A DNA stretch of 29,863 nucleotides from Candidatus Saccharimonadota bacterium (GTDB lineage: Bacteria; Patescibacteriota; Saccharimonadia; Saccharimonadales; UBA4665). Below, piece after piece: positions 1-20,167 of the stretch. A program made the translations under genes and the position numbers. The notes under the pieces are model-generated. The model made no database searches. It saw only the letters and a program-made list of their open reading frames with translations, and was not told where the DNA came from. The stretch is taken from NCBI GenBank assembly GCA_029288335.1, contig JARIHJ010000053.1, positions 1 to 29,863 of the forward strand, in the 5' to 3' direction. Each line of letters opens with the position of its first letter. The stretch's first letter is position 1.

Positions 1-368
1 GACTGTGACAGGGTAGAGATGGATGTCAGCTGTGATAGGTCTAAGCCCGTTGGCTCGATACAGCCGGTCCCACCGGCAACCGGCTCGGCTGTGGTGCAGT
101 ACTGGAAGCTAATTGAACCTAGCGAGTAAGTGTCACCAATAGTAAAAGTAAAGGCATGTTTAACTATGTAGTTAGCGTTTCCAGCCGTGCCGCTACCTGG
201 TGCTGAACCGCCGACAGCGTCGGCTATGAGCGTAAGGCTTCTGTGACCAGCGAATTCTGAAGCCAGCGCATGTGCAGTAAGGGGAGGCATTGCCTCAACC
301 GCCACGCCAACTATTAATAACAATGCGCCCAACAGGCTAGTAAGTCTTTTTATATTTACTCTTTTCAT
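1..368 (-). CDS. Secreted surface protein, 5' part only (runs off the left edge)
   Basis: Not in the ORF track; translated by hand from ATG at 368: MKRVNIKRLTSLLGALLLIVGVAVEAMPPLTAHALASEFAGHRSLTL...HAFTFTIGDTYSLGSISFQYCTTAEPVAGGTGCIEPTGLDLSQ. Open to base 1, with a Sec-type signal peptide and a strong promoter upstream. Confidence 0.85.
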   Translation of the reverse strand, partial: MKRVNIKRLTSLLGALLLIVGVAVEAMPPLTAHALASEFAGHRSLTLIADAVGGSAPGSGTAGNANYIVKHAFTFTIGDTYSLGSISFQYCTTAEPVAGGTGCIEPTGLDLSQLTSISTLSQ

Positions 369-514: not shown

Positions 515-1813
515 TTAGTAAGTAGCAGTGCAGATTATATATTGGCCACCTGTGTATTGGCCGCCCGGAGTTAGGCTGGAAACGTCAGCAATATAGCTGA
601 TAGTGTAGGTAGTTTCACCAGAACTTTTCGGTGCCGTCGCGATAGTTTCGCCGCTAACGTAACGGAATTTGTTGGGCGTGCCGTAATTAGCGCTCGCTGA
701 GCCGACCCCGTTAGGGCCGTAGGCTGGATTAGCACCGAAATTAGTTGGTGATGTGTTGGCGACTAGATTTATGCCAAATTGTTCGGTGCCTGGCGTAGGT
801 GCAGCTGTAGTTGCCATTCCGGGCAAGGTGTGGCCTTGATAGCTCGGTGGATTGCCACCGATTTGGACGGCGTAACCGTAGCTCGTGTAGTCAATGACGC
901 TAAAGCTGGAGGTAGCCGTAGCGGTTGTCGCTGGTCCGAACAGCCCGAACGCAGCATTAGTATTATTGATACTGACGGCCAGTCTGGGGTCCTGGGTGGT
1001 CTGGGAGCCGGCGTTTATTTGAAAGTTACCTGAGCTAGAGTTACCAATGGCACCGTCACCGGTTGATAAGGCTGATTGATAATTGGCCGAGCTAGAGTTC
1101 AGCAATCCGCCGCCGCCTAAGTCAGATTCGATGAGGGAATAGTTAGCCGAATCCATACCACTGTTCAAATCACGCGCTATAGTCAGGTTGGCTAGTGTGT
1201 TGGCCATGCCGTTGCCGCCAATAGTGAGCTTAAAAGTTGTCGACGAGAATCTGAGCGGTACTAGCGCTTCGTTCGTGAAGAAGTTGCTGGCGGTATATTC
1301 ATGGCCTGTTAGGTCGTAAAAGCTACCAGCGGTCGATCCGGATGATGAAGACATAGAATAGGCACCGTTATCATTTATGGAAACGAATTGGTTGCCCTCA
1401 GCGCTAGTAGCACTACCCATTGCAACGCCGACGTAGTAGGTTCCTGGTGCCGGCAAATTGACCTCAAAAGTTGCTGAGCTACCCGCGTTTACGAAGTTGA
1501 TACCGGCCAGACGCGAATCGACACTGGTCGATAGGTTAGCACTAGACGGTGCAGTGCCGGTCCAGCCGAAAGTCGCCCCGCCTCTATTTTGTGGGTAGGC
1601 ATCGCCAACCGAGTAGGTGCAGCCAGCCGGGTCAGTCACGTAGCCGGCGGTTGCTCGAAAGTCAAAGCACATATTATCGTAATTAGAGTAGGCGCTAGCG
1701 CTTCCAGAACTGTCAATAATTATGTAAGCAGCTCCGGTCGCGAGCAGGCTGAATAAAAACAGCCCAGCAACCGCCAGCGCACAACTTCTAATTAGGCTAG
1801 ACCAGTTGACCAT
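515..1813 (-). CDS. Secreted multidomain surface protein (jelly-roll/lectin-like N domain, Ser/Gly-rich linker, WxL-like beta C domain)
   Basis: ORF 515..1819 (TTG); ATG at 1813 is the likelier start. N-terminal hydrophobic signal. FEVNLPAPGTYYVGVAMG resembles carbohydrate-binding beta-sandwiches. The C-terminus YTISYIADVSSLTPGGQYTGGQYIICTATY resembles WxL-like surface domains. Domain calls are by eye. Confidence 0.7.
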   Translation of the reverse strand: MVNWSSLIRSCALAVAGLFLFSLLATGAAYIIIDSSGSASAYSNYDNMCFDFRATAGYVTDPAGCTYSVGDAYPQNRGGATFGWTGTAPSSANLSTSVDSRLAGINFVNAGSSATFEVNLPAPGTYYVGVAMGSATSAEGNQFVSINDNGAYSMSSSSGSTAGSFYDLTGHEYTASNFFTNEALVPLRFSSTTFKLTIGGNGMANTLANLTIARDLNSGMDSANYSLIESDLGGGGLLNSSSANYQSALSTGDGAIGNSSSGNFQINAGSQTTQDPRLAVSINNTNAAFGLFGPATTATATSSFSVIDYTSYGYAVQIGGNPPSYQGHTLPGMATTAAPTPGTEQFGINLVANTSPTNFGANPAYGPNGVGSASANYGTPNKFRYVSGETIATAPKSSGETTYTISYIADVSSLTPGGQYTGGQYIICTATY

Positions 1814-1897
1814 TACCAATTTCTCGCCCTCATTAGCTATATTCTTGTGGAAGCGGCCCGCTTTTGCAACTTACTGGAGGTTAGTAAGCTAAAGCGG

Positions 1898-1932: not shown

Positions 1933-2967
1933 ATGGCCGAAACCAATAATTCAAAACAACCGCCAGCGCCGGAAGAATTAAAACCGCAAGGCGAGACCGA
2001 AAAAAAACCGGAACCCACTAAAAGCGATAATAAAAAAGATTCTAAACTACCTAAACTCAAACGTCGCGGTAGCTATAGGCCTAGCCATAAAGCAACTTTC
2101 CTAGCTCTGATTGTAGTCATTCTGATACTGCTAGTGAATGGCGGGGTGATCGGCTTCGTGCTAGTAAGGCAGTCAAGTATCAAGCAGAAAGTGGATGACA
2201 GCCCGGTAGCGATTAGCGCTAGCGCACTAGCCAAACTCGGCGTCAACAATACGCCTGTCAACGACAAGGGAATCACATTGACGGTAAATCCCAACGCCCA
2301 GTTTAACGGTAACGTAGCCGTGGCTGGGAGCGCAAGCATCTCCGGCCAGCTGACTTTGAATAATAAATTTAGTGCTACTTCTGCTAGTTTCAACAACTTG
2401 CAGGCGGGAAATACCTCATTATCGCAATTGAATGTTAACGGCGACGGAACTTTATCGAGTCTGAACTTACGCCAAAATCTAGCCGTGGCTGGGGCTACCC
2501 AGATGCAGGGAACAGTGACGATCTCCCAAATGTTGACGGCGGCTAGTGTCGAGGTTACAGGCAATTTGGCGGTTGGCGGTACGATTTCGGTTAATAATGT
2601 GAACGCTCTAAACTTGGCGGTAGACGGCACCTTTACCATTGGTGGACACGTAGTTACCAGTGGTTCGGCACCTGGTGTCAGTGGTGGAACCTGCGGCGGG
2701 GTGACGAATAGCGGCAATGATGCTTCAGGAACTATTTTCGTGCCCGTCGGGGCTGGTGGCTGTAGCGGGACAATTGCTACTCTTTATTTCAGAAACTCTT
2801 ATGGCAACATCCCGCATGTGGTTATTAGTCCTGTAAATGTAGGTTCGGGGGTACCGGCTGGTACGACTTTTTACATTAGTAGCGTGAGTGCTAGCGGCTT
2901 TAGCGTCGGTGTTAGTGGAACGTTGACGCATGGTGGTTATGACATCGACTACATAGTCGAGCAGTAG
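1933..2967 (+). CDS. Membrane-anchored fibre-like surface protein
   Basis: Charged disordered N-terminus, one TM helix (FLALIVVILILLVNGGVIGFVLV), repeated G-N-L-x-V-x-G beta motifs, and a compact C-terminal beta domain (LYFRNSYGNIPHVVISP...SASGFSV). Confidence 0.75.
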   Translation: MAETNNSKQPPAPEELKPQGETEKKPEPTKSDNKKDSKLPKLKRRGSYRPSHKATFLALIVVILILLVNGGVIGFVLVRQSSIKQKVDDSPVAISASALAKLGVNNTPVNDKGITLTVNPNAQFNGNVAVAGSASISGQLTLNNKFSATSASFNNLQAGNTSLSQLNVNGDGTLSSLNLRQNLAVAGATQMQGTVTISQMLTAASVEVTGNLAVGGTISVNNVNALNLAVDGTFTIGGHVVTSGSAPGVSGGTCGGVTNSGNDASGTIFVPVGAGGCSGTIATLYFRNSYGNIPHVVISPVNVGSGVPAGTTFYISSVSASGFSVGVSGTLTHGGYDIDYIVEQ

Positions 2968-2996: not shown

Positions 2997-5537
<2,541 letters not shown>

Positions 5538-5541
<4 letters not shown>

Positions 5542-5638: not shown

Positions 5639-7126
5639 TCATTTGGCTGCCTCCACTTGTGACTCTGGCTGTTTAGCTTCTTTTTTGTCTGCTTTTGGTT
5701 TGTCACTTTCTACCGCGGTCGAGTGTTTTTTCAGTAATTCGGCTTCTAATCGGTCTAGATCCTTATCTTCCTTGACTTCGTGGGCTACTTTTTTAACTGA
5801 TTCTTTTAGGCCCGGTACGTCGATTTGAACTTTACCGCCACCAAGAATGACTGTCTCTAGCATCAGCTGTTGTTCGGCTAGCGAGTGTAGTTCTTCTGGT
5901 GGCTGCTGCAAAACGGCGAAAATTTGCTTGCCGAGCTCTAGATCAATAGCTGCTTCCTTGGATAAGCTAGAGCCGAAGTGCGAGAATTCCTCGGCCTGCT
6001 TATATCTAGCCAATTTTTTATTCAGCTCACTCGAGAGCTGCTTGGCGCGGGTAGTTTGCGAATCACCACCGACGCGCGAGACAGATAAGCCGGCGTTGAC
6101 CGCCGGTCGACGACCCTGGCGGAAAACGTTCAGATCCAGTACGATCTGGCCGTCGGTAATCGACATAATACTGGTCGATAGGTAGGCAGTAATGTCGTCG
6201 TTTGGCGTTAGCACAACAGGGAGAGCAGTTAAGGTTTTACCAGTTTTCAGCAATCTACCGGCGCGTTCTAATAAACTCGAGTGGGCGTAGAAAATGTCAC
6301 CAGGGTAGCTATCACGGCCAGGATCGACTTCTTGTAAAAGTGAAAGCTGGCGGTAGGCTTCAGCGTGAGAAGTAAGGTCATCATAGATAACAACGACGTC
6401 CTGGCCCGAATACCAAAGTTGTTCAGCCATTGCGCAGCCAGCGTAGGGCGCCAGGTAGCTTTGGGTTAGCGAATCAAAGATGTCGGCCATTACAACGATA
6501 GTGTGGTCCATCGCGCCAGATGTCTGCAGCTCGTTTAAAAGCAGTTCAATATCGACCTTGCGCTTACCAACCATCACATAGACGACGATACGGTCGGTGC
6601 CTTGCTGGTTAGCCGACAGCTGGCTCAAATAAGTACTTTTACCGGATTTAGAATCCCCCAGAATGGCGATACGCTGACCGAGAACTATTGGGAAGAAGCT
6701 ATCAACGGCTGTGACGCCGCTAACCAGCTGGGTTTCGAGGCGCTTTCTGGCCATAATGCCCGGCGCTGGGTTGAAAGCTGGCAGGGTTTCCGTAGCTCCA
6801 AGCGCACCTTTGCCATCAAGTGGTTCACCCATTGGCGTGATTACACGGCCGACTAGTTTTTTGCCGACCGGTATGCTCAAAATATCGTTTTCGACAACTG
6901 CCAGCGTGCCGGTCGCGAGGTGCTCGGAGTCGATGTTGAAGAGGACGACGTGGTCGCCGCTAGCTTCACGAACTAGTCCGCGCTGGCCATCGGAGAACAG
7001 GACTTGCGCTCCTAGCCGCACACCCTCTAGTCCTTTAACCTCTACGATGAAACTATTGGTGGCGACGACTTCGCCGGTCAGGTTGTCGGCCTCGACTAGC
7101 TTCTGGAACCTAGGATTATCGAACAT
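5639..7126 (-). CDS. atpA: F-type ATPase alpha subunit (divergent)
   Basis: LGQRIAILGDSKSGKS P-loop, YDDLTSHAEAYRQLSLL, PGRDSYPGDIFYAHSSLLERA, SITDGQI, and GLSVSRVGG (arginine finger). Confidence 0.96.
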   Translation of the reverse strand: MFDNPRFQKLVEADNLTGEVVATNSFIVEVKGLEGVRLGAQVLFSDGQRGLVREASGDHVVLFNIDSEHLATGTLAVVENDILSIPVGKKLVGRVITPMGEPLDGKGALGATETLPAFNPAPGIMARKRLETQLVSGVTAVDSFFPIVLGQRIAILGDSKSGKSTYLSQLSANQQGTDRIVVYVMVGKRKVDIELLLNELQTSGAMDHTIVVMADIFDSLTQSYLAPYAGCAMAEQLWYSGQDVVVIYDDLTSHAEAYRQLSLLQEVDPGRDSYPGDIFYAHSSLLERAGRLLKTGKTLTALPVVLTPNDDITAYLSTSIMSITDGQIVLDLNVFRQGRRPAVNAGLSVSRVGGDSQTTRAKQLSSELNKKLARYKQAEEFSHFGSSLSKEAAIDLELGKQIFAVLQQPPEELHSLAEQQLMLETVILGGGKVQIDVPGLKESVKKVAHEVKEDKDLDRLEAELLKKHSTAVESDKPKADKKEAKQPESQVEAAK

Positions 7127-7604
7127 TCGCTAGTACCTCGGCGAATTTTCTCCGGTTATCTAGTAATTGCCGGCGGAATGACCAGTCAAAAACATGGCTG
7201 CCACAGCGCAAGACCATACCGCCGAGCAGAGTAGAATTAAATTCGAAGTTAACCAATATATTGTCGTCAATATTTTTGCGGCACCAATTAGTTAGGTCTT
7301 GCTTTAATTTGGGGCCGGCCGGTGCCGCTAGTGTGATAGTTGCGCTGGGCGCTGAATCTTTTAAGTTTTCTAGGGCGCCGGCTAGTTTGTCCAAGCTAGA
7401 ACTGGACAACGGATTTCTCATTAACCAATCGTGTAATGTTTCGCTGGCACCGGGTGATAGTTCTGGAGCAGGGCTGCGTTTTCTAACTTTAAGGCGCTTT
7501 TTAATGTCATTATGAGCTAGCCAGCTAGCGTAGTTACGAACTTCGAGGGCAAGCGCTTGAATGTCTTGCCTGGAATTGACCTCTGAGGGCAACTCAAGCG
7601 CCAT
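7116..7604 (-). CDS. atpH: F-type ATPase delta-like subunit
   Basis: C-terminal ATITLAAP...NSTLLGGMVLRCGSHVFDWSFRRQL matches the delta/OSCP C-domain (DPxLIGGxxIxxGxxVxDxS). Immediately upstream of alpha, with overlap. Confidence 0.88.
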   Translation of the reverse strand: MALELPSEVNSRQDIQALALEVRNYASWLAHNDIKKRLKVRKRSPAPELSPGASETLHDWLMRNPLSSSSLDKLAGALENLKDSAPSATITLAAPAGPKLKQDLTNWCRKNIDDNILVNFEFNSTLLGGMVLRCGSHVFDWSFRRQLLDNRRKFAEVLANVR

Positions 7605-8202
7605 CCTTCACTCCGTCGATAATTTCGGCTTTGTGTTCGTCGAGCTGGGCTAGCAAATACTTGCTTTGTGCGCCTAAATCCGCATCGTGACCCAGCGTCT
7701 CTAATAAGAACGACATCACAGCATCGGAAATTTTGCTATCGAGCTGCTCCAGTCGGTGCTGCTTTTCTTCGGCGACTTCTTGCTCCATTTTGGCTTTTAG
7801 GGCGACTTGGTGCTCGCTCAGCTCAGTTTCAGCCGATTTGCCAGCGTTTTCGGCGCGCTGGCGTATCCTATCGAGCTCCTCGTGGTAGCGTGCCATCTCT
7901 TTGCCGATGATGTCTTGACTCAACTTTTCGAGCTGGGCGGTTAGCCTAGTCTCGCTAGCTTTTAGATCGGTTTGTAGTTGTGTTGACGAGCGCTCGATCA
8001 CCGCCTGAAAGTTGGTGAGCGCCTTCTCCTGCATTTGCTTCACGATTTCCGGGTCGAGATGGCCGTTTTGTGGCCTGGGCCGCTGCTCGGCATCGTGCCT
8101 TTCCGGTTTAAAATGGGCTAGGCCGTGCCGCCAGGCTAGGGTAGCGACCGCTCCGATGATTAGCGCGTCAACGATCAGGAATATTTCTAAAAATAAATTC
8201 AT
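7594..8202 (-). CDS. atpF: F-type ATPase b-like peripheral stalk subunit
   Basis: Single N-terminal TM, long Glu/Lys/Gln/Ala coiled coil, and a b-like C-terminus (ISDAVMSFLLETLGHDADLGAQSKYLL). In the atpF position. Confidence 0.7.
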   Translation of the reverse strand: MNLFLEIFLIVDALIIGAVATLAWRHGLAHFKPERHDAEQRPRPQNGHLDPEIVKQMQEKALTNFQAVIERSSTQLQTDLKASETRLTAQLEKLSQDIIGKEMARYHEELDRIRQRAENAGKSAETELSEHQVALKAKMEQEVAEEKQHRLEQLDSKISDAVMSFLLETLGHDADLGAQSKYLLAQLDEHKAEIIDGVKDGA

Positions 8203-9023
8203 AGCCTAGTTAGGATTAGGTAAATTACAGCGATAGCCACGGCAATGATGCCGACGACCAGCGCAGACATTTGGACCATATCACGGTAGATTGCCGATTG
8301 GCTCATTGGGTTGCGGCCGACTGAAATAATGCTCGAGCGGATCATCGAGTAGACTATGCTGCTGACGACTATTATCATAATCAGAAAGATTACTGTACTG
8401 ACGATAATCGGTAGAGCGTTGACCTTTTTGCCGGCCAGGGAATTCGCGACGTTTTGCAGGGCGCTAGGGATAATGGTTTTATCGGGTTGTCTATAGAAAT
8501 AGGAGACATTGACATCGATGGGCACGGTACCGATATTAGCTGAGCCGGTGGTGCCGTTTTTGGTTTTGTAAGTCTGTTTAGTTCCACTTAAGTTCGACTG
8601 GCTAACACCGATGATTTTAACGTTCTGGGTGGCAAGCATCCCGACACCGGGAATTGGTGAAGCGGTGATTGGGCTGCCAGCCGTAACTGGGCCGTTGATG
8701 TCCGAGACCAGCACTTGCTGGACACCGTTTGTTGCGACTTGCACTTGGCTGGTTTGGCCGCTGCTAACTGACAACAGAGAATTGTCGCTAGCGATAACAA
8801 CACCGTATAGATTGCTGACGTTGTCGGTATTAGCGGCTTCAACGGCGTCAGAGGAATTCTTATCCAGACTGACTAGTGAACCGGGCGTTAAGTTGCTACT
8901 GCCGGAAAAACTTTGCGACAGGGTGGTTACGGCATACGCTGCGGCCGGCAGAGAAAGAATACCCAATGCTATGACCAAAAATATTTTTGATTTCACTAAA
9001 AAGATTTTCATTTTATAGTCCAC
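8199..9023 (-). CDS. Secreted beta-domain fused to a c-subunit-like helical hairpin (RNP loop, no carboxylate)
   Basis: Signal peptide (alternative ATG at 9011), about 175-aa extracytoplasmic beta-rich region, then TM1-SIISVGRNP-TM2 at the C-terminus. First gene of the operon, in the atpE slot, with a 4-nt overlap with the b-like gene. Confidence 0.7.
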   Translation of the reverse strand: MDYKMKIFLVKSKIFLVIALGILSLPAAAYAVTTLSQSFSGSSNLTPGSLVSLDKNSSDAVEAANTDNVSNLYGVVIASDNSLLSVSSGQTSQVQVATNGVQQVLVSDINGPVTAGSPITASPIPGVGMLATQNVKIIGVSQSNLSGTKQTYKTKNGTTGSANIGTVPIDVNVSYFYRQPDKTIIPSALQNVANSLAGKKVNALPIIVSTVIFLIMIIVVSSIVYSMIRSSIISVGRNPMSQSAIYRDMVQMSALVVGIIAVAIAVIYLILTRL

Positions 9024-9154: not shown

Positions 9155-9757
9155 ATGAGCGGGCAAGACAAACAACATCCTGAAGTAGTTGTCGGCAGCG
9201 GCGACCATCCGCATTCTTGGCGTAAGCCCTACTATCTGGTCGGCGGGGGCATAATCGTCCTCCTAATAATCGCTCTTGTGATCGTCAGCTTGTTGGCGAT
9301 GTCCAGTAAAAGCCCAACCACGCACCAGAACACACAACCAGTAACAGTTTGTAGCACTCCGTTAATCACACAGGCCAGTCAGGATTTGGCGGTTAACGAC
9401 ATTACTGCTACCGCTGGGATAGACCAGCAGGTTACGGCTATGAAAGGTTATAAACAAGACCCGAACTGCGTCTACATTGCGCTCAGATACGCGATTATGA
9501 CCGGGAACGATAGTGCCAGTAAGCAATATTACAACCAGCTGCTGACGCTTAAGCAGCAGAACGGCGGGAAGTTCGACTTCAGCTCAGCCTTTGGTGGGCA
9601 AATGATGAGCCTGCCTAGCCTATTAGCCGCTATAAAAGCTAACGAAGCCAACCAATCGGCTCAGGAACAGATGAGCACAGGGGCTAACGGCGATTTGCAA
9701 AAAGTTGACCAGATGTATAAGGCGGCCCCTCCTAGCGGGAGTAATAATAACCAATGA
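9155..9757 (+). CDS. Single-pass membrane protein with helical extracytoplasmic domain, unknown function
   Basis: TM YYLVGGGIIVLLIIALVIVSLLAM; ATGA overlap with the next gene. Confidence 0.75.
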   Translation: MSGQDKQHPEVVVGSGDHPHSWRKPYYLVGGGIIVLLIIALVIVSLLAMSSKSPTTHQNTQPVTVCSTPLITQASQDLAVNDITATAGIDQQVTAMKGYKQDPNCVYIALRYAIMTGNDSASKQYYNQLLTLKQQNGGKFDFSSAFGGQMMSLPSLLAAIKANEANQSAQEQMSTGANGDLQKVDQMYKAAPPSGSNNNQ

Positions 9758-12501
9758 TGATTGGCTATATCCGTCGCGACCTAGCTACTACTATAAGATT
9801 ACTATTGGCGACGGTTGTAGTGGTACTGGGTGTGGTAGCGCTCCGAACTATGTCCGCGAGTGCTTTATATAGTACGGCAACGATTCAGGCCAATTTAGCT
9901 AACGGCGTCTCTACGGCGTACGGATGGGACAGTGGTTGCCGAAGCGCTATCGGAGTCAGCAGAGGCTTAACTTTTAACAATGGGCTGCGGGCTAGAATCG
10001 ACCAAACCTCTCCACCAGCTTCCTATGTGCTTTCGACCTGGATTTCTGCTAAGGGTCAGCCAAACACAACCAACCCTGTTAATGTAGCTTATGGCACCAC
10101 GACCGTGCCGATGCAGTTTAACAGCGTTAACTTTTTGTGCCGTACCCTTATAGCGCCCGACCTCAGTCGCGGTTGTACCGATTTGTCAGTTTCTGCTTAC
10201 GATATATATCGCTCTGGTGGCTGGGTTACACCTACCAATGCCGCAGATGCTTATCCTAACGCTGAATGGGCCCCTAATGGAGGCTGTATGAATCCAGCCA
10301 AGACTGGGGTAGCAATTCAACTCAGTAATCTTACTGCCCAAAGTTCAGGTGGGGCACAAGGGGTCGTTTCTGGGTTTACCAATGGTTCCATACTGGATAT
10401 TGGAAGAAATAATACTTCACGCTACTGGTTCTCGAATAAAACATACTTTAACTATTACGATGCAAATGGGCTTACTCAGGACCAAACAGTTACCTTTAAA
10501 GCTGATTACAAAAATATCTCAACCTATTACGGGTCGACTTATATTTGCTCTGGTGTCACAGTGTCGGGCCCCCATTCATTTGGGAGTTGTCCAATCAAAC
10601 ACACCACCTTTACTATTTATATACACGTGGGGCCGCCGCCTTGTCCGGCGGGTGAAACTGGCACGCCGCCAAACTGCAAAAAGCCCAGTGTGTGCCCAGG
10701 TGATCCTAATATTCAGGCCAACGCGCTAGTAACAGTGCCAACGCCGTACAATACCCCCGATCCACAAACCGCACCCACCGGCACGACAACGACGCAGGGA
10801 GCCACCTACACTCAGGATATACCAGTGAAAAATGGTAATTTCACAGTCGCCGATACAAGCACTGGTGGCACACCGGTGTCGCCAGCTAGCCTCAATCTCC
10901 AGGTGGCAGCCGATCAACAGTCGGCCATAGTTGACTATACAATCTTTACTAAGACTTATCCGTACGACCACAACCAGGCGTCTGTAAGTTACTACACATA
11001 CTATCGAACCCAAACCTGGAAAGCGACTAAATCCAATGGTAATGGAACTTACAGCTATGTACAGGCAGGCGGACTGAGCGGCCAAACGCAGAACTACAAC
11101 ACGGCGGTGGGGTACACGATGAGCCCTTGCTACAAGCGCAGCTTTACGGCCAGCTGGGACCCTCAGCCGACTAGTGGTACGCTGGATAACGCCGAGGATC
11201 CGACTAGTGCTAATTTCACTGGTAACACTGTCAATGTACACTTTTACGGCCCGGTTGACCCCAAGAACTTGCGGTTGCCATCCGTAGTTACACTGACTTA
11301 CAGTGGCAGCGGGCCCTATGGGAGTTGTAACGGTGGCACGCTTACAATTACGTCTCCGAATAATTCAGCGAGTGATAATACGGGCAGTTTCAATTTATCC
11401 TGCCCGGTTTCGGCGCCGCCATTGGAGGTTGGCCAGCAAGTTTGCATAAATATGACGGTTACTCCCCAGGCAGGTGACGTCGACGATGCCGGCAATATGT
11501 CAAACACCTCTGGATCACTAACGGCTAATCCTTGCACTAATGCTCTGATCGATGAACCGTATACGCACTTTTTTGGTGAGGATGTATCTACGGGCGGAGA
11601 TTTCGCTAATGGCAATGATCTGTGCGCCGGCGAGAATCCAACTCAAGGGGGGCAAATCCTGACCTGGCTGGAAGACGCGGCCCGTGGTTCGGGCGCTCAG
11701 TTTGCGGCAATCTCCGGTGGAAATAGGGGCTCGGTTAACCAATTTTCTACTGCCAATTTGCGTGGTGCCAATCCGATTGCGCCGAACGGCTTGCTATTGC
11801 CAAACAACCCGCCAAACGGTAGTTTGGGCACTAGTGCGTGCATACCAGACTATTACGGCAGCAGGCCGAACTCACTTACTGCGTGGCCCGGTACACCGGC
11901 TGCCGGCCAGACCAAAGCTTATATACTGAACGGCAACACCTTAGGGGGCTTTAGCGTCCCACTCGGCACTAGCGTGGCTATCTATGCCAGCGGCAGTGTG
12001 ACCGTTACAGGCAATATTACCTATGCCGGTGCCGGCGGCGGCTGGACGGTTAACGGCAACCAAAGTAACGTCCCGTCACTATTCGTCATAGCTAAGGGCA
12101 ACATCAGTGCCGCACCGAATGTTACCGAACTTGATGGTACTTATGTAGCCCAGGGTGGCACCTTTGATAGCTGTAGCACGCACGACTACACCAGCTGCAA
12201 TAGCCAGCTCGTGGTTTATGGCTCGGTCATAGCCAAGCAGTTAAACTTGTTCCGAACCTATTCCTCGCTGCGTGACTCCAAGCCCGGAGAATACCCTAAT
12301 CCACTGGGTAATACAGGTAACTGTGATGTAGGTGACAACGGTAATCCGACCGGCCCTGGGGGCGCGCGCCCAACTAATTACGACTGTGCGGCCGAAATTT
12401 TCATCTTTAGCCCGGAGACATACTTGCCGCGGCCGGCCATACCACCGTTCAGTAATTCTCAACAATACGATGCCATTTTCAGCCTCTCACCGGTATTGTA
12501 A
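9754..12501 (+). CDS. Large Cys-rich secreted protein, candidate pilus-associated adhesin
   Basis: 915 aa with a signal/TM N-terminus, many paired Cys, Pro-rich linker GPPPCPAGETGTPPNC and a beta-helix-like C-terminal region (GSVTVTGNITY...LFVIAKGNI...LVVYGSVIA). Directly upstream of pilM. Confidence 0.7.
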   Translation: MMIGYIRRDLATTIRLLLATVVVVLGVVALRTMSASALYSTATIQANLANGVSTAYGWDSGCRSAIGVSRGLTFNNGLRARIDQTSPPASYVLSTWISAKGQPNTTNPVNVAYGTTTVPMQFNSVNFLCRTLIAPDLSRGCTDLSVSAYDIYRSGGWVTPTNAADAYPNAEWAPNGGCMNPAKTGVAIQLSNLTAQSSGGAQGVVSGFTNGSILDIGRNNTSRYWFSNKTYFNYYDANGLTQDQTVTFKADYKNISTYYGSTYICSGVTVSGPHSFGSCPIKHTTFTIYIHVGPPPCPAGETGTPPNCKKPSVCPGDPNIQANALVTVPTPYNTPDPQTAPTGTTTTQGATYTQDIPVKNGNFTVADTSTGGTPVSPASLNLQVAADQQSAIVDYTIFTKTYPYDHNQASVSYYTYYRTQTWKATKSNGNGTYSYVQAGGLSGQTQNYNTAVGYTMSPCYKRSFTASWDPQPTSGTLDNAEDPTSANFTGNTVNVHFYGPVDPKNLRLPSVVTLTYSGSGPYGSCNGGTLTITSPNNSASDNTGSFNLSCPVSAPPLEVGQQVCINMTVTPQAGDVDDAGNMSNTSGSLTANPCTNALIDEPYTHFFGEDVSTGGDFANGNDLCAGENPTQGGQILTWLEDAARGSGAQFAAISGGNRGSVNQFSTANLRGANPIAPNGLLLPNNPPNGSLGTSACIPDYYGSRPNSLTAWPGTPAAGQTKAYILNGNTLGGFSVPLGTSVAIYASGSVTVTGNITYAGAGGGWTVNGNQSNVPSLFVIAKGNISAAPNVTELDGTYVAQGGTFDSCSTHDYTSCNSQLVVYGSVIAKQLNLFRTYSSLRDSKPGEYPNPLGNTGNCDVGDNGNPTGPGGARPTNYDCAAEIFIFSPETYLPRPAIPPFSNSQQYDAIFSLSPVL

Positions 12502-12615
12502 AATTTTTACCGGTTATGTATAAATATGTATGGAGTTATCTAAATAAAAATTTTAAGCGGTGGGACAGATGCTAAAGACACAAACCACAAAAAATAGTTG
12601 TTATCGGAGTGGGCA

Positions 12616-13656
12616 ATGAGCCTGCTCTCCGGTGTCTCGAATTTCTTCGGTCTCGATCTAGGGACGGAAGCGATCCGGGTGGTTGAATTGCGTGGTAATG
12701 CTCCGACCAAAACTCTCGTTAAGTATGCCTACGTACCGGTTGATAGCCGGGCTTCGAGAAGTGATTCCAGAGCTGACCAGCAGAAGCTGTTGCAGGCCTT
12801 GAAGAGTTTGTTATCGCAGGCCAGGCTATCTACCCAAAATGTAGCCGTCAACTTACCGTCTGATCGGGTATTTACTACTGTAACTGAGTTTGATCGACTG
12901 AACCCTAGTGAGCTTCATAGAGCTTTGCAGCTCCAGGCTGACTCACTTATCCCGACTCCAGTAGCCGAATCCAAAATCGACTGGGCGGTGATTGGTGATT
13001 CGCCGACCGATAAGACTAAAGTCGAGGTGCTACTCTCTAGTGTAGCCAATAACTTTGTTGAGCAGAGGCTGGATATGCTCGAGTCGATCGGGCTGAACGT
13101 AATTGCTTTTGAACCCAGTAACCTAGCATTAGCCCGAGCGCTGGTGCCAACTGGTGCCAATCTGCCTCACTTGGTGTTGGATATCGGCAGTGCTACGACG
13201 GACTTGGTGATTATTGCCAATGAGGCGCCCCATTTGACCAGGGCGATTCCTATCGGTACAGATAGCGTTATCCGGGCGGCTGCACAGAATTTGAATGTGG
13301 ACGACAAACAGGCGCAGCAATTAGTCTTTAAGTTTGGCCTGAGCCAGCAAAAGTTGGAAGGTCAGGTCTTTCAGGCGATTAAGCCGACAGTCGACAACTT
13401 GGTCAGCGAAGTAGATAAGTCATTGAAATTCTTTGCCCAGCGCTATCCGGATTCAAAGATTGATCGTCTGATAGTCGCTGGTGCCGCTGCCAGCATCCCT
13501 GAATTCCCGTTATACCTAGCTAAACAGTTCAATTTGAACACCGAAATCGGCAATGCTTGGCGCAATGTCAGCTATGCTCCAGAGCGCCAAAATGAGTTGT
13601 TATCGGTGTCAAACCAATTTAGTGTCGCGGTTGGTCTAGCTGAGAGGAAACAGTGA
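12616..13656 (+). CDS. pilM: Type IV pilus assembly protein PilM
   Basis: Actin-like fold motifs FGLDLG, LVLDIGSATT and IVAGAAASIP. ATG 12616 with GGAG upstream is preferred over TTG 12598. Confidence 0.93.
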   Translation: MSLLSGVSNFFGLDLGTEAIRVVELRGNAPTKTLVKYAYVPVDSRASRSDSRADQQKLLQALKSLLSQARLSTQNVAVNLPSDRVFTTVTEFDRLNPSELHRALQLQADSLIPTPVAESKIDWAVIGDSPTDKTKVEVLLSSVANNFVEQRLDMLESIGLNVIAFEPSNLALARALVPTGANLPHLVLDIGSATTDLVIIANEAPHLTRAIPIGTDSVIRAAAQNLNVDDKQAQQLVFKFGLSQQKLEGQVFQAIKPTVDNLVSEVDKSLKFFAQRYPDSKIDRLIVAGAAASIPEFPLYLAKQFNLNTEIGNAWRNVSYAPERQNELLSVSNQFSVAVGLAERKQ

Positions 13657-14339
13657 TGGCGGTGCAATTTAACTTACTACCTGATGTCAAATATCAGTAC
13701 CTGAGAGCTAAACAGCTGCAGCGCTTGGCGGTGTCGGGCGCATCTATAGCCGTGGCCGTCTGTGTGGTGGTAATAATTTTGTTGGTTCTGTGGGTTGACG
13801 TGTGGCAAAAGCACACTATCAGCTCGACCACCGATAATATTAGGACCGCCGCCGCCAAGATCGAGTCGATCAATGGCTTGGACAAGATAATTACCGTCCA
13901 GAGCCAGCTAGACAGTCTGCCGAGCCTATACGCGCAGGATCCGCAGGTTTCCAGAATCTTCGGCTACATTACGCAGTTGACGCCGCCAAACGTGACAATA
14001 GGGGATTTACAGCTTGATTTTACCCAGGACACAATGGAAATTAGGGGATCGGCTCCGGGCCTTGACGATGTTAATGCCTACACAGACAGCCTGAAGAGTG
14101 CGACCTATAACGACAAAACCAGCGGTGCTACTGGCGTCCAAGCCTTTACAAGCGTGGTGCTGAGCTCCTTTAGCCGCGACGACAAGGGCGCGACCTATAC
14201 CATTGATATGAACTTCGACCCCTTGCTATTCCAGGCATCTGAAAACATCACCCTATACGTACCGCAAAAGACCAACTTACCGCAAGTGCCAGGCTTAAAT
14301 GGCAGTATTTTCAAGGCATTACCTAAGGGGGGGCAATAG
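13653..14339 (+). CDS. pilN: Type IV pilus assembly protein PilN
   Basis: QFNLLP N-terminal PilM-binding motif, one TM, coiled coil, ferredoxin-like C domain. Confidence 0.85.
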   Translation: MMAVQFNLLPDVKYQYLRAKQLQRLAVSGASIAVAVCVVVIILLVLWVDVWQKHTISSTTDNIRTAAAKIESINGLDKIITVQSQLDSLPSLYAQDPQVSRIFGYITQLTPPNVTIGDLQLDFTQDTMEIRGSAPGLDDVNAYTDSLKSATYNDKTSGATGVQAFTSVVLSSFSRDDKGATYTIDMNFDPLLFQASENITLYVPQKTNLPQVPGLNGSIFKALPKGGQ

Positions 14340-14341
14340 TT

Positions 14342-15043
14342 ATGGCTACAATCTCTGGCCTTAAATCCCAAGCCGCCAACATTCAGATTGGCAAGCATCT
14401 GCAACTATCACGCGCGCAGACAGTGACTTTTTCGTCAATTGCGATAGCTGTGTTCGTAGTAGTGTTCACAATATTTGCGGCTAAATCACTGATTAGCGAG
14501 GGTAGTTTCCAGCACCAAGTGATCAATGCCAAACACGCCGCGCTAAACCAGCTCCAGGTGAACCAGACGAATGTTTCTAAGCTGGCCAACGCTTACAAGG
14601 CATTTATAAGCACTCCGCAGAATATGCTGGGAGGTTCGCCTACTGGCACGGGGCCGCAAGATGGCTCTAACGCCCAGCTAGTCTTGCAAGCATTGCCGTC
14701 AAAATATGACTTTCCCGCACTGACATCCAGCATCGAGAAGCTAATCACTGGCCAAAATATGACCATTCAGTCGATTAGCGGTTCCGACGATCAGGTAAAC
14801 CAGCAGAGCAACAATACTAGCGCCTCGCCGCAACCGGTAGCGATGCCATTTTCGGCTACCGCTGAAGGCAATTACGCCCAGGCGCAAGCGCTGATTGGCC
14901 AATTTCAACACTCAATTAGACCGTTTCAGATTATGACTCTGGAATTCCAGGGTGATCAAAGTGATATGACGGTCTCGATTACCGCCCAGACCTATTATCA
15001 ACCGGGTAAGAATTTTGCAGTGGGGCATAAGGAAATCAAATGA
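14342..15043 (+). CDS. pilO: Type IV pilus assembly protein PilO
   Basis: One TM, coiled coil, LPSKYDFPALTSSIEKL, and FSATAEGNY...RPFQI. Follows pilN. Confidence 0.8.
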   Translation: MATISGLKSQAANIQIGKHLQLSRAQTVTFSSIAIAVFVVVFTIFAAKSLISEGSFQHQVINAKHAALNQLQVNQTNVSKLANAYKAFISTPQNMLGGSPTGTGPQDGSNAQLVLQALPSKYDFPALTSSIEKLITGQNMTIQSISGSDDQVNQQSNNTSASPQPVAMPFSATAEGNYAQAQALIGQFQHSIRPFQIMTLEFQGDQSDMTVSITAQTYYQPGKNFAVGHKEIK

Positions 15044-15309
15044 AACGAAAAGATTTAGCCTTGCTCGCCGGAATATTGATTCTTAGTATCCTTATATCGT
15101 TAGTGATATCAAACTTAATTTTTGGCGGTAGTGGCTCTCGCCAGCAGCAGGTAGAAGTAGTCAGCCCGATCTCGGCTCAGTTCCCAGTTGATCAGGTTAG
15201 TGGTCCAGACAAACAATTCAACAGCAATGCCGTCAATCCAGCTCAGCTGATTCAGATCGGCCAGCCCAATGACAATCCTTTCAATGGTAATGCCAATAGT
15301 CCAAGCTAG
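15040..15309 (+). CDS. Small single-pass membrane protein in the pilP position
   Basis: 89 aa with an N-terminal TM and no lipobox; ATGA overlap with pilO. Confidence 0.7.
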   Translation: MKRKDLALLAGILILSILISLVISNLIFGGSGSRQQQVEVVSPISAQFPVDQVSGPDKQFNSNAVNPAQLIQIGQPNDNPFNGNANSPS

Positions 15310-15321
15310 GAGCTTCTCAAG

Positions 15322-17136
15322 GTGAGTGTACTCTCTGCTAACTCCCAGCGGGCGATTGAGGATCAGTTGGTTAGTTCGGGAATTATATCCGATAGTCAGA
15401 TGGCTGAATATAAAAGCGCCGCCGCCGCAGCCAAACAGCCTCTGTTGGCGTTCTTGGTAGCCGAGAAGCACATTAGCGACGAAGACCTGACCAAGGCTTC
15501 AGCGCACGTTAATGGCGTACCTTACGTTAACCTGTCAAATGTTTTTATTGACCATAAGGTTCTAGAACTTCTTCCAGAGGACGCAGCCAATCGCTATATG
15601 GCTGTACCACTTGGTGAGATGAAAGGTAGATTGGTCGTAGCGATGTTGGACGCCGACAACGTCCAGGCGGTCGACTTTCTGGCGACCAAGCTAGGTCGGC
15701 CACTAAAAGTCTACGCCGCTAGCGAATCTGGTATTAGGAGCGTACTAGCCCAATATAAGACCAAAATCGCCGCTAGCGAGATGGCAGAGCTTAAAAGTTT
15801 AGCTGAAGCTCAGAACCAGGCGGAAGCTACTGCCGAGCCAGCCCACAAGGCCAAATCTGCCAGGGTCAAGGCCGATGACATCCAGACTATTGTTCAGGAT
15901 TCACCTGTCTCCAAGGTGCTAACCACTATCTTGGAATTTGCCGCCAATAATCACGCCAGCGATATTCATATCGAACCCGCTGAAACCGAGCTCAAGATTC
16001 GTTGCCGCGTTGATGGGGTTTTACGCGAGATTATGACGTTGCCGAAGGAAATCGAGCCGGCCTTAATTTCCCGGGTAAAAATTTTAGCGACGCTCAAAAT
16101 CGATGAACATCGCGTGCCGCAGGACGGTGAATTCACCGTCAAGGTCGGCGATAACGCGATCGACTTGCGTATCGCTATTTCGCCGGTTATCTGGGGTGAG
16201 CAGGTCGTTATCCGTTTGCTCGACAAGTCTGGCACATCCCTGAGGCTGGAAGATATGGGTTATAAGGGCCGTGCCCTCCGGACGATACGTGATGGCATCA
16301 AACAGTCTAGCGGTATGATCTTGACCAGCGGTCCGACGGGTTCAGGTAAGTCGACGTCGATGTACGCTCTCCTTCAGGAGGTTAAAAGTGACACCGTCAA
16401 CATTGTCACCCTGGAAGACCCGGTTGAGTACAAAATGGACGGAATTAATCAGATTCAGGTCAATAGCGCGGTTGGCCTGACGTTTGCCAATGGCCTGCGC
16501 TCAATTTTGCGCCAGGACCCAGACATCATTATGGTCGGCGAAATTCGCGACAAGGAGACTGCCGATCTGGCGGTGCAGGCTAGCTTAACCGGCCACTTGG
16601 TATTTAGCACGCTCCACACCAACAGCGCAGCTGGCATTTTGCCACGCTTGCTCGATATGGGCATTGAGCCGTTTTTGATTGCTAGCACGGTACATACTGT
16701 CATCGGTCAGCGGCTAGTCCGCCGGATCAGTAGCAAAAAAGAAGACTACCAGTCAGACGTTGCCGAAACGGCAGCAATCAAGGAAACGATTGGCGCTTAT
16801 TTGCCGAAGTCGGACGAGGACAAGCAGAAAGTTGGCGAAGACCTAGGTTTCGAAAACTTGCCTCTAGCCGACCAAAATGCTTATACTTTAGCTAAGGGCA
16901 TTGACGCGCCCGACGCTCCAGGTGGCTACAAAGGCCGGATGGGCGTCTATGAGGTCTTTAACGTCAGCCAAAAAATACAAGAATTAATCTTAAAACGAGC
17001 AACATCCAGTGAAATACAAAAAGTCGCCAGCTCAGAGGGAATGCTAACAATGCGCCAAGATGGCTATCTGAAAGCTTTGAGTGGTATGACCACTTTACAA
17101 GAAGTTAACAGAGTTGCATCCGAGGGGGCCGCTTAA
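15322..17136 (+). CDS. pilB: Type IV pilus extension ATPase PilB (GspE/PulE family)
   Basis: ASDIHIEP, GPTGSGKS, TLEDPVEY, LRQDPDIIMVGEIRD, STLHTN, plus an N-terminal GspE N-domain. Confidence 0.95.
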   Translation: MSVLSANSQRAIEDQLVSSGIISDSQMAEYKSAAAAAKQPLLAFLVAEKHISDEDLTKASAHVNGVPYVNLSNVFIDHKVLELLPEDAANRYMAVPLGEMKGRLVVAMLDADNVQAVDFLATKLGRPLKVYAASESGIRSVLAQYKTKIAASEMAELKSLAEAQNQAEATAEPAHKAKSARVKADDIQTIVQDSPVSKVLTTILEFAANNHASDIHIEPAETELKIRCRVDGVLREIMTLPKEIEPALISRVKILATLKIDEHRVPQDGEFTVKVGDNAIDLRIAISPVIWGEQVVIRLLDKSGTSLRLEDMGYKGRALRTIRDGIKQSSGMILTSGPTGSGKSTSMYALLQEVKSDTVNIVTLEDPVEYKMDGINQIQVNSAVGLTFANGLRSILRQDPDIIMVGEIRDKETADLAVQASLTGHLVFSTLHTNSAAGILPRLLDMGIEPFLIASTVHTVIGQRLVRRISSKKEDYQSDVAETAAIKETIGAYLPKSDEDKQKVGEDLGFENLPLADQNAYTLAKGIDAPDAPGGYKGRMGVYEVFNVSQKIQELILKRATSSEIQKVASSEGMLTMRQDGYLKALSGMTTLQEVNRVASEGAA

Positions 17137-18204
17137 ATGAACGCGCAACCCAAAATCGAAGTCCTGCTCGAGGAGTGTGTCAAGCGGAAGGCCTCAGACC
17201 TTCATATCCAGGTTGGTTTGCCGCCGATGCTCAGAATCGATGGTAAATTGGCGCCGGTGCCAGGTACCGACGTATTGAATGACGAGGCGGTCGAGGCATT
17301 AATTTTCGCGATTCTGGACGAAGACCAGAAGCAAGTACTCTTGAAGGATAAAGAGTTCGACTTTAGTTTCGCTTTTGGCGATATGGGGCGTTTTCGTGTC
17401 AACGCTTTCCACGAGCGTGGCAATCTAGCGGCCGCACTCAGGCTTATCACCAATAATATGCAGACCATCGAGCAGCTTGGTTTGCCGTCGGTGGTCAACA
17501 AGTTTGCTGATTACCCGCGTGGCCTTGTACTGGTAACCGGTCCGACGGGCTCGGGTAAGTCGACCACGCTGGCGGCTATGATCGACAAGATCAATCACGA
17601 GCGTGCCGAGCATATTATCACCATCGAAGATCCGATCGAATACACCCATCAATCGAAGAAATCCGTCGTTGTCCAGCGCGAAGTTCATTACGATACGTAT
17701 AGCTTTAGTGCAGCCCTGCGTTCGGCGCTACGCGAAGACCCGGATGTGGTGCTGCTGGGGGAAATGCGCGATCTCGAGACGATCGCTAGCGCTATTACTA
17801 TCGCCGAAACCGGTCACTTAGTCTTTGCGACCCTTCACACCAACAGCGCGGCTCAGAGTATCGACCGTATGATCGATGTTTTTCCGCCGCACCAGCAGCC
17901 CCAAATTCGCTCGCAGCTATCGAATATATTGATGGCCATCGTCTCGCAGCGGTTGATTCCGACGATTGGCGGCGGCCGCATTGCCGCGGCTGAGATTCTG
18001 GTGGCGACTAGCGCTGTGCGTAACATTATCCGCGAAGGTAAAACCCACCAGCTGGAGGCTGTCATCCAGACTGGCGCCGAGTTTGGTATGCAGAGTATGG
18101 ATAAGACCCTGGTTGAGTTAATCCACAGCGGCACAGTGACCTACGACGAGGCTAAGAATTTTGCTGTCGACCTAGATGAGCTCGACAGACTAATGAGGGG
18201 CTAG
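17137..18204 (+). CDS. pilT: Type IV pilus retraction ATPase PilT
   Basis: ASDLHI, GPTGSGKSTT, LREDPDVVLLGEMRD, TLHTNSA, and AVRNIIRE (AIRNLIRE motif). Confidence 0.96.
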   Translation: MNAQPKIEVLLEECVKRKASDLHIQVGLPPMLRIDGKLAPVPGTDVLNDEAVEALIFAILDEDQKQVLLKDKEFDFSFAFGDMGRFRVNAFHERGNLAAALRLITNNMQTIEQLGLPSVVNKFADYPRGLVLVTGPTGSGKSTTLAAMIDKINHERAEHIITIEDPIEYTHQSKKSVVVQREVHYDTYSFSAALRSALREDPDVVLLGEMRDLETIASAITIAETGHLVFATLHTNSAAQSIDRMIDVFPPHQQPQIRSQLSNILMAIVSQRLIPTIGGGRIAAAEILVATSAVRNIIREGKTHQLEAVIQTGAEFGMQSMDKTLVELIHSGTVTYDEAKNFAVDLDELDRLMRG

Positions 18205-18207
18205 GCA

Positions 18208-19446: not shown

Positions 19447-19550
19447 TTAAAAGTTGTGGAAAAGTCCTTGATTTTAGCTAACAAACTGATTAATATTTAG
19501 CCATAAGCGTAAAAATATAGCTTAATTAAAGGGCACCAATAAAAGGGGAA

Positions 19551-20072
19551 ATGAAAATGCTCAAAAAACTAAAAACTAATCAGCGTGGCTTCACCATCAT
19601 CGAAGTTATGATTGTGCTGGCCGTGGCGGCCTTGATCATCTTGATCGTGCTGCTTGCCGTGCCGGCGCTTCAGCGTAACAGCCGTAATACGGCGATTAAG
19701 AATGACGCTTCGGCTGTCGCAGCCGGGATTACAGAGTATGAGTCTAACAATAACGGTTCGTTGCCTAACACCATTGACAGTGCTAACACTTCTTCATTGA
19801 TATTGTGTAGAACTGGCGGCGGCGGTAACGGCGCTTGCCCATCTAACCCAACTGATGCTCCGGCTAATGTCAAGGTTCAGGGTAGCGATGTGGTTAAAGT
19901 AGGCACCGGTACTCTTGCGACAACTTCAGGCAATATTGGTCACATCCAAGTTGATTTTGGCTACGAGTGTAATGGCAACGGCGCTAGTCCGACAGTGTCG
20001 GCTCGCTCAACGGCCATTCTCTATCTAACAGAGACCTCTGGCACTCCGGTTCATTCGTGTGTTGACGCCTAG
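19551..20072 (+). CDS. pilA: Major type IV pilin
   Basis: Class III signal QRG|FTIIEVMIV with E5 and four Cys. Stand-alone gene with its own SD-like AAGGGGA and a strong terminator, as expected for the abundant subunit. Confidence 0.88.
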   Translation: MKMLKKLKTNQRGFTIIEVMIVLAVAALIILIVLLAVPALQRNSRNTAIKNDASAVAAGITEYESNNNGSLPNTIDSANTSSLILCRTGGGGNGACPSNPTDAPANVKVQGSDVVKVGTGTLATTSGNIGHIQVDFGYECNGNGASPTVSARSTAILYLTETSGTPVHSCVDA

Positions 20073-20090
20073 AGAAATCAATAGCCTCAC

Positions 20091-20125
20091 AGTTAAAACG
20101 GCCGCTTTATACGGCCGTTTTAACT
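20091..20125 (+). terminator. Intrinsic terminator hairpin after pilA
   Basis: Perfect 14-bp inverted repeat AGTTAAAACGGCCG / CGGCCGTTTTAACT with a 7-nt loop. Confidence 0.85.
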
Positions 20126-20151
20126 TGTAGCCAATGGCACTGTTAGTGGCG

Positions 20152-20160
20152 TGGTATCAT
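20152..20160 (+). promoter_or_regulatory. Extended -10 just before pilD (possibly leaderless transcript)
   Basis: TG-g-TATCAT ending 7 nt before the ATG at 20168. Confidence 0.5.
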
Positions 20161-20167
20161 CTAGCTA

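Follow-up and report, generated by a model that had tools for sequence, protein, structure and literature searches.

A carboxylate-less, subunit-c-like hairpin on a secreted protein heads an F1-type ATPase operon without subunits a and c in Candidatus Saccharimonadota

Rotary ATPases are known as ion-coupled machines. In F-type ATP synthases the membrane subunit c (AtpE, PF00137) is a hairpin of two helices with both ends outside the cell; its cytoplasmic G/A-R-N/Q-P loop, of the GRNP type, is where gamma and epsilon dock, and its second transmembrane (TM) helix carries the ion-binding Asp or Glu about 18 to 20 residues after the loop Arg. Hairpins without this carboxylate are known from hybrid rotor rings, for instance the one of Acetobacterium woodii (c1), and from duplicated rings of the V-type c; to our knowledge all such rings also contain ion-binding hairpins and operate together with a subunit a. 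Here we describe a 29,863-nucleotide stretch of DNA from a Candidatus Saccharimonadota bacterium (assembly GCA_029288335.1, contig JARIHJ010000053.1, positions 1 to 29,863; hereafter the window), in which a seven-gene F1-type ATPase operon begins with a gene, here called X, that joins a secreted beta domain to a c-like two-TM hairpin devoid of the carboxylate. On balance we consider it probable that the product of gene X serves as the membrane subunit in a second F1-type ATPase, one without a subunit a or a canonical subunit c.

The closest functional analogues of this system appear to be the F1-like X0 ATPases of Mycoplasma, of which Type 2 is the G1 gliding motor and Type 3 is required for MIB-MIP; the Mycoplasma system has been described as mycoplasma-specific and is thought to act as an ATPase, not a synthase (PMC3369863, PMC12994834). 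Both systems provide an additional alpha, beta, gamma and epsilon set beside a canonical F1Fo in a tiny, host-dependent genome, and both are seven-gene clusters devoid of a and c. By its description, Mycoplasma Protein 5 (MMCAP2_0577) also has the architecture of X: behind a signal peptide comes a large outward domain, and the C-terminal part supplies two TM helices with a short loop between them. The Patescibacteria operon differs in keeping a b-like/delta stalk, whereas Mycoplasma lacks delta and the delta-binding helix of alpha; it has no counterpart of the 12-TM Protein 1 or the cytoplasmic Protein 2, and the ectodomain of X is small and phage-like. N-ATPases, which possess their own a and c as well as AtpQ and AtpR in the order atpDCQRBEFAG, differ from the X operon in both gene order and content, the latter having no a or c. 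Literature searches returned no description of a c-like fusion or of an F-type ATPase without a and c in the candidate phyla radiation (CPR).

Gene X (P0001) lies at 8199..9023 on the reverse strand and encodes 274 amino acids (aa); both the translation and the residue coordinates given in a preliminary description of the window were reproduced exactly, with two candidate start codons (GTG at 9023 and ATG at 9011). AlphaFold2, run with a 147-row alignment, yielded a model with a predicted local distance difference test score (pLDDT) of 93 and a predicted TM-score (pTM) of 0.75, comprising strands between residues 35 and 176, a short helix at 187-197 and a hairpin of two helices (203-237 and 239-273) that turns at R237/N238. 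The signal peptide (residues 1-31, 8931..9023 (-)), of classical type and read by eye from the sequence, ends in AYA with cleavage after A31 and contains a modelled helix at residues 3-23. It is followed by the extracellular beta domain (residues ~32-180, recognised by Foldseek matches in the PDB and BFVD and by weak Pfam matches), which together with the short helix corresponds to 8424..8930 (-) and, at about 170 aa, has nearly the size originally proposed for it. The C-terminal hairpin (residues 203-274, 8202..8417 (-)), delimited from the model, where its helices have a pLDDT >90, and from the alignment, consists of TM1, loop and TM2. Its loop contains G236-P239, the GRNP sequence encoded by 8307..8318 (-), with the loop Arg R237 specified by codon 8315-8313 as described before. 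The residue 20 positions further on, where c subunits place their ion-binding Asp or Glu, is V257 (8253..8255 (-)). No Asp or Glu occurs in TM2, and the single acidic residue past the loop is the non-conserved D248 (+11) at the cytoplasmic boundary. TM1 (IIVSTVIFLIMIIVVSSIVYSM) contains no Gly whatsoever, in keeping with the reported loss of the helix-packing motif. The signal peptide, taken with the basic residues on either side of and within the loop (R229, R237 and R247), leads us to infer that the loop is cytoplasmic and that both ends and the beta domain are outside, which agrees with the orientation first suggested.

Gene X is followed on the same strand by tightly packed genes for a b-like protein, delta, alpha, gamma, beta and a short epsilon. 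The b-like protein, a putative stator stalk of 202 aa (7594..8202 (-)), has one N-terminal TM helix ahead of a long charged helical region and no Pfam match. The delta (OSCP)-like subunit (7116..7604 (-); PF00213, E 6.9e-7) precedes an alpha-like subunit (5639..7126 (-); PF00006, E 5e-66) with a non-catalytic P-loop and an SVSRVG Arg finger, and a gamma-like subunit (4681..5541 (-); PF00231, E 9e-25). The beta-like catalytic subunit (3257..4681 (-)) displays the Walker A motif GGAGVGKT, the catalytic Glu within GVGER and a Walker B motif, and its DELSEED loop is degraded to NELSPAD. Epsilon (2997..3260 (-); PF02823) is reduced to 87 aa, a beta-sandwich alone without the C-terminal inhibitory helices, and is equally short in all 16 of the 16 operons aligned. 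Judged by sequence, beta is a genuine F1 beta: it matches the beta of Bacillus PS3 at E 1e-105, compared with 6e-84 for Mycoplasma mobile G1 beta and 1e-38 for the ATPases of type III secretion systems (T3SS). Because it is nearer to ordinary F1 than to G1, an origin independent of the Mycoplasma system is likely. Neither the open reading frames (ORFs) nor a Pfam scan of the operon revealed a gene for subunit a or canonical c, and the operon contains no multi-TM ORF at all; its only genes outside the F1 set are X and the b-like protein with its single TM helix.

This arrangement is stable. The order X-b-delta-alpha-gamma-beta-epsilon is preserved, up to contig ends, in 80 of 80 orthologous loci of Saccharimonadales/Saccharibacteria surveyed in public metagenome-assembled genomes. 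A wider survey covered 201 Patescibacteria genomes; inspection of 20 full-length X homologues in 19 of them showed F1 genes behind X, in the same orientation, at 15 of the 20 loci. Most homologues are thus linked to F1 genes, a linkage whose general absence would have counted against the preliminary description. Among the unlinked copies, those of G169 and G087 are second copies in genomes whose first copy is linked, while G063, G186 and G170 have a b-delta-alpha-gamma-beta-epsilon operon without a and c elsewhere in the genome. In several relatives (L095 in G063, L096 in G186, and L080, L084 and L082) the F1-like operon begins at the b-like gene, behind a cysteine-desulfurase-like gene, and X is located elsewhere, beside rplU and a surface protein of at least 583 or of 1,745 aa; X can therefore be unlinked from its presumed partners.

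X belongs to a large family. At 90% identity 1,435 clusters were found (E<=1e-3), all of about 260-310 aa and, where named, assigned to Candidatus Saccharimonadales; an exhaustive search at 50% identity produced 1,281 clusters, and the counts that follow refer to 146 complete, diverse representatives of the 50%-identity clusters. In these the loop reads GRNP in 143, ARNP in two and GRQP in one, and the distance from the loop Arg to the C-terminus is 36-38 residues in 143. Position +20 is uncharged in all 146, mainly hydrophobic and never Asp or Glu; both the near-invariance of RNP and the missing acid at +20, which the preliminary description had proposed to look for in homologues, are thereby confirmed. 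Polar residues of varying kind occupy position +14 (Q in 69, E in 18, R in 15, K in 10 and D in 6), which is hence not a conserved ion site. The hairpin alignment has a mean column identity of 80%. Of the columns in the 147-row alignment, no more than four are without any variation: R237, P239 and two that lie in the ectodomain. Conservation in the family peaks at the GRNP loop, and the best-conserved stretch of the protein is the segment directly before it together with the loop itself. The X family shares with the hybrid and duplicated rings a c-type hairpin minus the ion-binding residue, but departs from them in lacking a conserved carboxylate throughout the family and a subunit a in the operon.

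How far the hairpin may be equated with subunit c is best judged feature by feature. The two have in common the two-helix fold with both ends outside, the cytoplasmic loop (EAIGRNPEA in Patescibacteria c subunits), the roughly 37 residues between the loop Arg and the C-terminus, and a gene position directly before b, delta, alpha, gamma, beta and epsilon. Unlike c, X has no ion-binding Asp or Glu in TM2 and no GxGxGxG in helix 1, it carries a signal peptide and an extracellular domain of ~170 aa, and its operon includes no subunit a. An hhalign comparison of 145 X hairpins with 25 F-type c subunits of Patescibacteria returned a probability of 91% (P 1.1e-6, score 35.2), to be set beside column-shuffled controls of 9.1+-1.9 (maximum 14.5). 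With the full model as query, Foldseek aligned the hairpin to the Chloroflexus c subunit 9itt_I over 68 columns with a TM-score of 0.87 and a root-mean-square deviation (rmsd) of 1.4 A, and further to c subunits of Tetrahymena, A. woodii (PDB 4bem, which we take to be the hybrid ring), I. tartaricus and Polytomella, all at E 0.4-0.7; an AlphaFold2 model of the hairpin alone (pLDDT 86) gave 13 PDB matches, eight of them c subunits, the best at E 2.7. A feature search of the ESM Atlas with residues 196-274 serves as a lead only: its top match (0.90) is a Saccharimonadota cluster automatically named 'V-ATPase proteolipid subunit C-like domain', and 74 of its 100 matches were PF00137 clusters.

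The direct comparison is nevertheless fragile. Once the four GRNP columns are deleted, the hhalign score drops to 7.6, which is background, and for this reason homology is not claimed from the direct comparison of X with c alone. A hidden Markov model (HMM) of canonical c gives the X hairpins a median of 10.4 bits, with P0001 at 10.6, while full shuffles score -0.3 and shuffles that keep the motif reach a median of 3.9 and a 95th percentile of 11.4. PF00137 is not matched by X, its homologues or 22 isolated hairpins, even at E<=10, and the X-hairpin HMM has no match among all PDB sequences at E<=10. The structural matches to c subunits are not statistically significant, since a fold as simple as a helical hairpin does not discriminate. 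The similarity to subunit c put forward in the preliminary description thus exists but is weak, being driven by the motif in the direct comparison and unaccompanied by a PF00137 match. It could be argued on these grounds that the hairpin is unrelated to c and merely a membrane anchor, in which GRNP arose independently and which happens to be co-transcribed with the ATPase; the direct profile signal that vanishes with the motif, the want of any Pfam match and the undiscriminating fold all speak for it. We nonetheless regard such convergence as very improbable. The motif is invariant precisely where c contacts gamma and epsilon, in an operon that encodes gamma and epsilon, the stretch of ~37 residues from the Arg to the C-terminus equals that of Patescibacteria c subunits and, above all, a set of intermediate hairpins matches both families well above motif-kept shuffles.

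These intermediates emerged from a scan of 61 genomes with PF00137 at its curated cut-off, which exceeded the threshold in two very long secreted ORFs of 629 aa (G028) and 2,589 aa (G005). The C-termini of both proteins combine a Gly-rich helix 1 of the c type with an X-type GRNP(L/F)AR loop and a TM2 without a carboxylate. Scored over their last 75 residues, the two proteins reach 46-47 bits with the canonical-c HMM and 28-33 bits with the X-hairpin HMM, far beyond the maxima of 17-21 bits attained by 200 motif-kept shuffles of each. A profile built from the two hairpins and run over the 201 genomes (the unpublished G154 enters solely as one of the genomes in these tallies) recovers canonical c subunits together with 15 X-family hairpins, six inspected X loci included, and nine large carboxylate-less hairpin proteins in eight genomes. 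Large secreted proteins of 629-2,592 aa whose terminal hairpin is PF00137-positive, Gly-rich and carboxylate-less, with a GRNP(L/F/Y)A loop, are located at L182:5871-7760(+), L183:10433-18202(-), L185:1-615(+), L186:1180-3075(+), L187:19549-19899(-) and L188:2452-4482(-). Unlike X, the hairpins on these giant proteins keep the GxGxGxG motif. In three of three cases (G005, G009 and G079) the giant protein is encoded on the same strand as alpha-gamma-beta(-epsilon) genes and upstream of them, and in G005 b-like and delta-like genes come before the alpha gene; at that locus an ATP-binding cassette ATPase and a 4-TM permease (L183:1135-3134(-)) are interposed between the giant hairpin protein and the b-like, delta and alpha genes.

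As the intermediate hairpins match both families above motif-kept shuffles, we conclude on sequence grounds that the X hairpin represents a diverged member of the subunit-c hairpin lineage. It falls outside PF00137 proper because it has no carboxylate, no Gly motif and no profile match, and is best described as a c-derived hairpin. We also conclude that a c hairpin without the carboxylate recurs as a membrane module in these Fo-less ATPases, and that interchangeable ectodomains are fitted onto it.

Could the product of X simply serve the canonical enzyme, its ion-blind hairpins being inserted into the c-ring so as to alter the ion/ATP ratio or to decorate the synthase? There is precedent for carboxylate-less hairpins in the hybrid rotor rings introduced above, and a canonical F1Fo is present in the source genome (G000; 778 kb, 92.5% complete; the window is its contig C42). 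That genome holds three F1 sets. The canonical operon (atpI-a-c-b-delta-alpha...gamma...beta) is distributed over contigs C62 and C20 and encodes a c subunit with the sequence ...ATGRNPES... and a Glu in TM2; within it, at L010:9341-11534, additional ORFs of 139, 80, 150 and 76 aa occur between alpha, gamma and beta, the 139-aa ORF having no Pfam match. The third set, on contigs C87 and C40, repeats the seven-gene order without a and c and is headed by a 284-aa paralogue of X (L014:1308-2162(-), 32% identity) with Glu at position +14, where P0001 has Gln; directly after its epsilon, in convergent orientation, lies a gene for a 342-aa bactofilin-domain protein (L011:3836-4864(-)). A role as modifier of the canonical synthase is nonetheless most unlikely, as X is accompanied by a complete F1 and stalk set of its own in strict synteny. 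Furthermore, four genomes that are 96-100% complete and carry the X operon (G026, G057, G126 and G128) have no match to PF00137 or PF00119, from which it follows that the operon is independent of canonical Fo. In the beta tree, too, the canonical betas form one clade with a support of 100/100, whereas the betas of operons without a and c, whether linked to X or not, are placed outside it in two groups.

If X is the membrane subunit of this second ATPase, how might the machine work? Copies of X would probably assemble in the membrane beneath the foot formed by gamma and epsilon, contacting it through their GRNP loops, while the alpha3beta3 head, held by the b-like/delta stalk, would hydrolyse ATP, in line with the intact catalytic motifs, the epsilon devoid of inhibitory helices and the eroded DELSEED loop. 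With no subunit a and no carboxylate there is no ion path, and the output would therefore be mechanical and delivered to the outside domains; the energy would not be stored as a gradient and would instead pass through the hairpins as torque or conformational change. Since the operon encodes no proton channel, ATP is probably burnt for work at the cell surface, not made. In its most specific form, an ATP-driven rotary or torque motor at the surface of Patescibacteria, in which an F1 head without an ion channel turns an ion-blind ring of the c type, this scheme remains tentative and is in our estimation rather doubtful. The preliminary description had envisaged a c-ring bearing a rotating crown of extracellular domains; what the sequence and model show is the conserved gene order, the near-invariant loop, the missing carboxylate, the fold, the tie to subunit c through the intermediate hairpins and the intact catalytic motifs, and the ring and its crown, along with the stoichiometry, the contact with gamma and epsilon, the rotation itself and the thing that is moved, are what we infer beyond them.

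Several observations weigh against the reading of X as the membrane part of such a machine, to which the motif-dependent and non-significant direct comparisons with c given above also belong. Complex predictions lend no support to oligomerisation or to docking on gamma and epsilon. For gamma, epsilon and four hairpins the median score was 0.15 and the best 0.29, below the mark of 0.32, values that neither support nor refute the complex; in the best run, itself below the support mark, epsilon 35-47 touches loop residues 236-241 of three to four copies in the canonical geometry. Four copies of mature X scored 0.00, which again neither supports nor refutes their association. The bulky helix 1 argues against a tightly packed canonical c-ring, and in the absence of subunit a there is no evident membrane partner that would hold the b-like stalk against the rotor. 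Certain X paralogues are solitary and stand beside large surface proteins. The sequencing runs that contain the locus are all DNA runs from soil metagenomes, and no RNA run contains it.

Some of the same observations would suit an actuator that does not rotate, in which X is a static anchor or lever and ATP hydrolysis drives a conformational or pulling cycle without continuous rotation. A cycle of this kind has been proposed for the Mycoplasma G1 gliding motor and for the MIB-MIP-associated ATPase (PMC12994834, PMC3369863), analogues with a similar protein of signal peptide, ectodomain and two TM helices, the mechanism of which is itself unexplained (PMC12994834, PMC3369863). Such an actuator would need neither a subunit a as stator partner nor the ring-packing Gly motif that the bulky helix 1 of X has lost, and it would agree with the missing prediction of an oligomer, a score that neither supports nor refutes one. 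We consider it unlikely, although less so than the other alternatives, given that the gamma/epsilon rotor and the b/delta stator stalk are both retained (the stalk being lost in Mycoplasma), as befits relative rotation, and that the best-conserved element of X is the very loop by which a ring docks onto its rotor.

The ectodomain of X is of a type by which phages attach their decoration proteins and fibres. Foldseek matched it in the PDB to cement and decoration proteins (8hdt_G of Pam3, 8pkh of Borrelia BB1, 9ocb of Sf11 and 5wk1 of TW1; E~1e-4) and in BFVD to pre-neck-appendage barrels, DUF2190 and the N-terminal domains of large fibre-like proteins, with E-values down to 4.5e-9 and an rmsd of 2.5-3 A over ~145 residues; weak matches of X homologues to PF23982 and PF22758 agree with a phage-like fold. 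The fold is therefore one that X shares with phage decoration and pre-neck-appendage barrels (Pam3 gp6, BB1, Sf11 and TW1; PF22758, PF23982 and DUF2190), from which the X domain differs in being cellular, exported by Sec and tethered to the membrane, at a sequence identity of only 10-26%. Without the hairpin, the same ectodomain is present, sometimes in repeats, in many giant surface proteins from various lineages of Patescibacteria; examples are G198:C1:212606-212845 within an 11,716-aa frame and G167:C1:986098-986448 within a 4,279-aa frame.

Genes for surface proteins also accompany the operon downstream of epsilon. A convergent gene (1933..2967 (+)) encodes a membrane-anchored, repeat-rich surface protein of 344 aa, a homologue of which follows epsilon in 60 of the 80 orthologous loci, and a 434-aa secreted protein (515..1819 (-)) is found there in one or more copies in 54 of the 80. 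Neither has a Pfam or PDB match; the C-terminal half of the latter falls into a family with over 1,400 Saccharimonadales proteins of ~243 aa. Another ORF listed with these surface-protein genes is situated at 3-368(-). Compared with the published Pam pilus, the 344-aa and 434-aa proteins have no PDB match, their homologues bear no protein names and their sizes do not obviously fit PamA or PamB. The conserved neighbourhood of secreted and surface proteins, together with the presence of the hairpin on giant surface proteins, might suggest an export or assembly platform, in which an F1-like head on an X oligomer energises the export or assembly of the neighbouring surface proteins or of pili in the manner of the FliI/FliJ/FliH ATPase complex of type III secretion. 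This is quite improbable, as X spans the membrane with just two helices and shows no recognisable channel, as the proteins encoded nearby bear Sec-type signal peptides or anchors of their own, and as beta is a true F1 subunit (E 1e-105 with PS3, 1e-38 with T3SS ATPases).

On the other side of X, and divergent from it, the window contains a type IV pilus cluster (12598-21001 (+)) encoding PilM, two PilN/O-like proteins with one TM helix each, an 89-aa protein, PilB, PilT, PilC, a pilin with an N-methylation motif and a prepilin peptidase. A link between the operon and the pilus was considered and rejected: the cluster adjoins the operon in only 8 of the 80 orthologous loci, and the association is therefore not general. 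Between X and the pilus cluster (9155-12501 (+)) lie genes for a 200-aa protein with one TM helix and a 915-aa secreted protein rich in Cys and Thr, both without a Pfam match; homologues of the 915-aa protein adjoin X in only 3 of the 80 loci.

If the proposed reading is correct, the X operon would encode an F-type motor with a full rotor and stator, no ion path and a c-type hairpin fused to an outward-facing domain; as a device that spends chemical energy on mechanical work at the cell surface, it would put the rotary ATPase to a different use. Its motor ring would carry outside domains ranging from a 170-aa phage-like module to surface proteins of 2,500 aa, and the c-hairpin would be a general coupling module by which ATP energy in the cytoplasm is transmitted mechanically to the surface; possible uses include host attachment, the handling of pili or fibres and surface remodelling in epibionts. 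The system may, moreover, shed light on the still unexplained F1-like X0 ATPases of Mycoplasma, of which it would be a simpler relative or analogue. There are practical implications as well, in that calls of an 'ATP synthase' in CPR genomes from alpha and beta genes may count an X-type ATPase that is not a synthase. Saccharibacteria are not the only Patescibacteria with X-family genes, and Patescibacteria as a whole form a very large, little understood group of host-attached organisms; the costly maintenance of three F1 heads in a genome of 778 kb implies strong selection.

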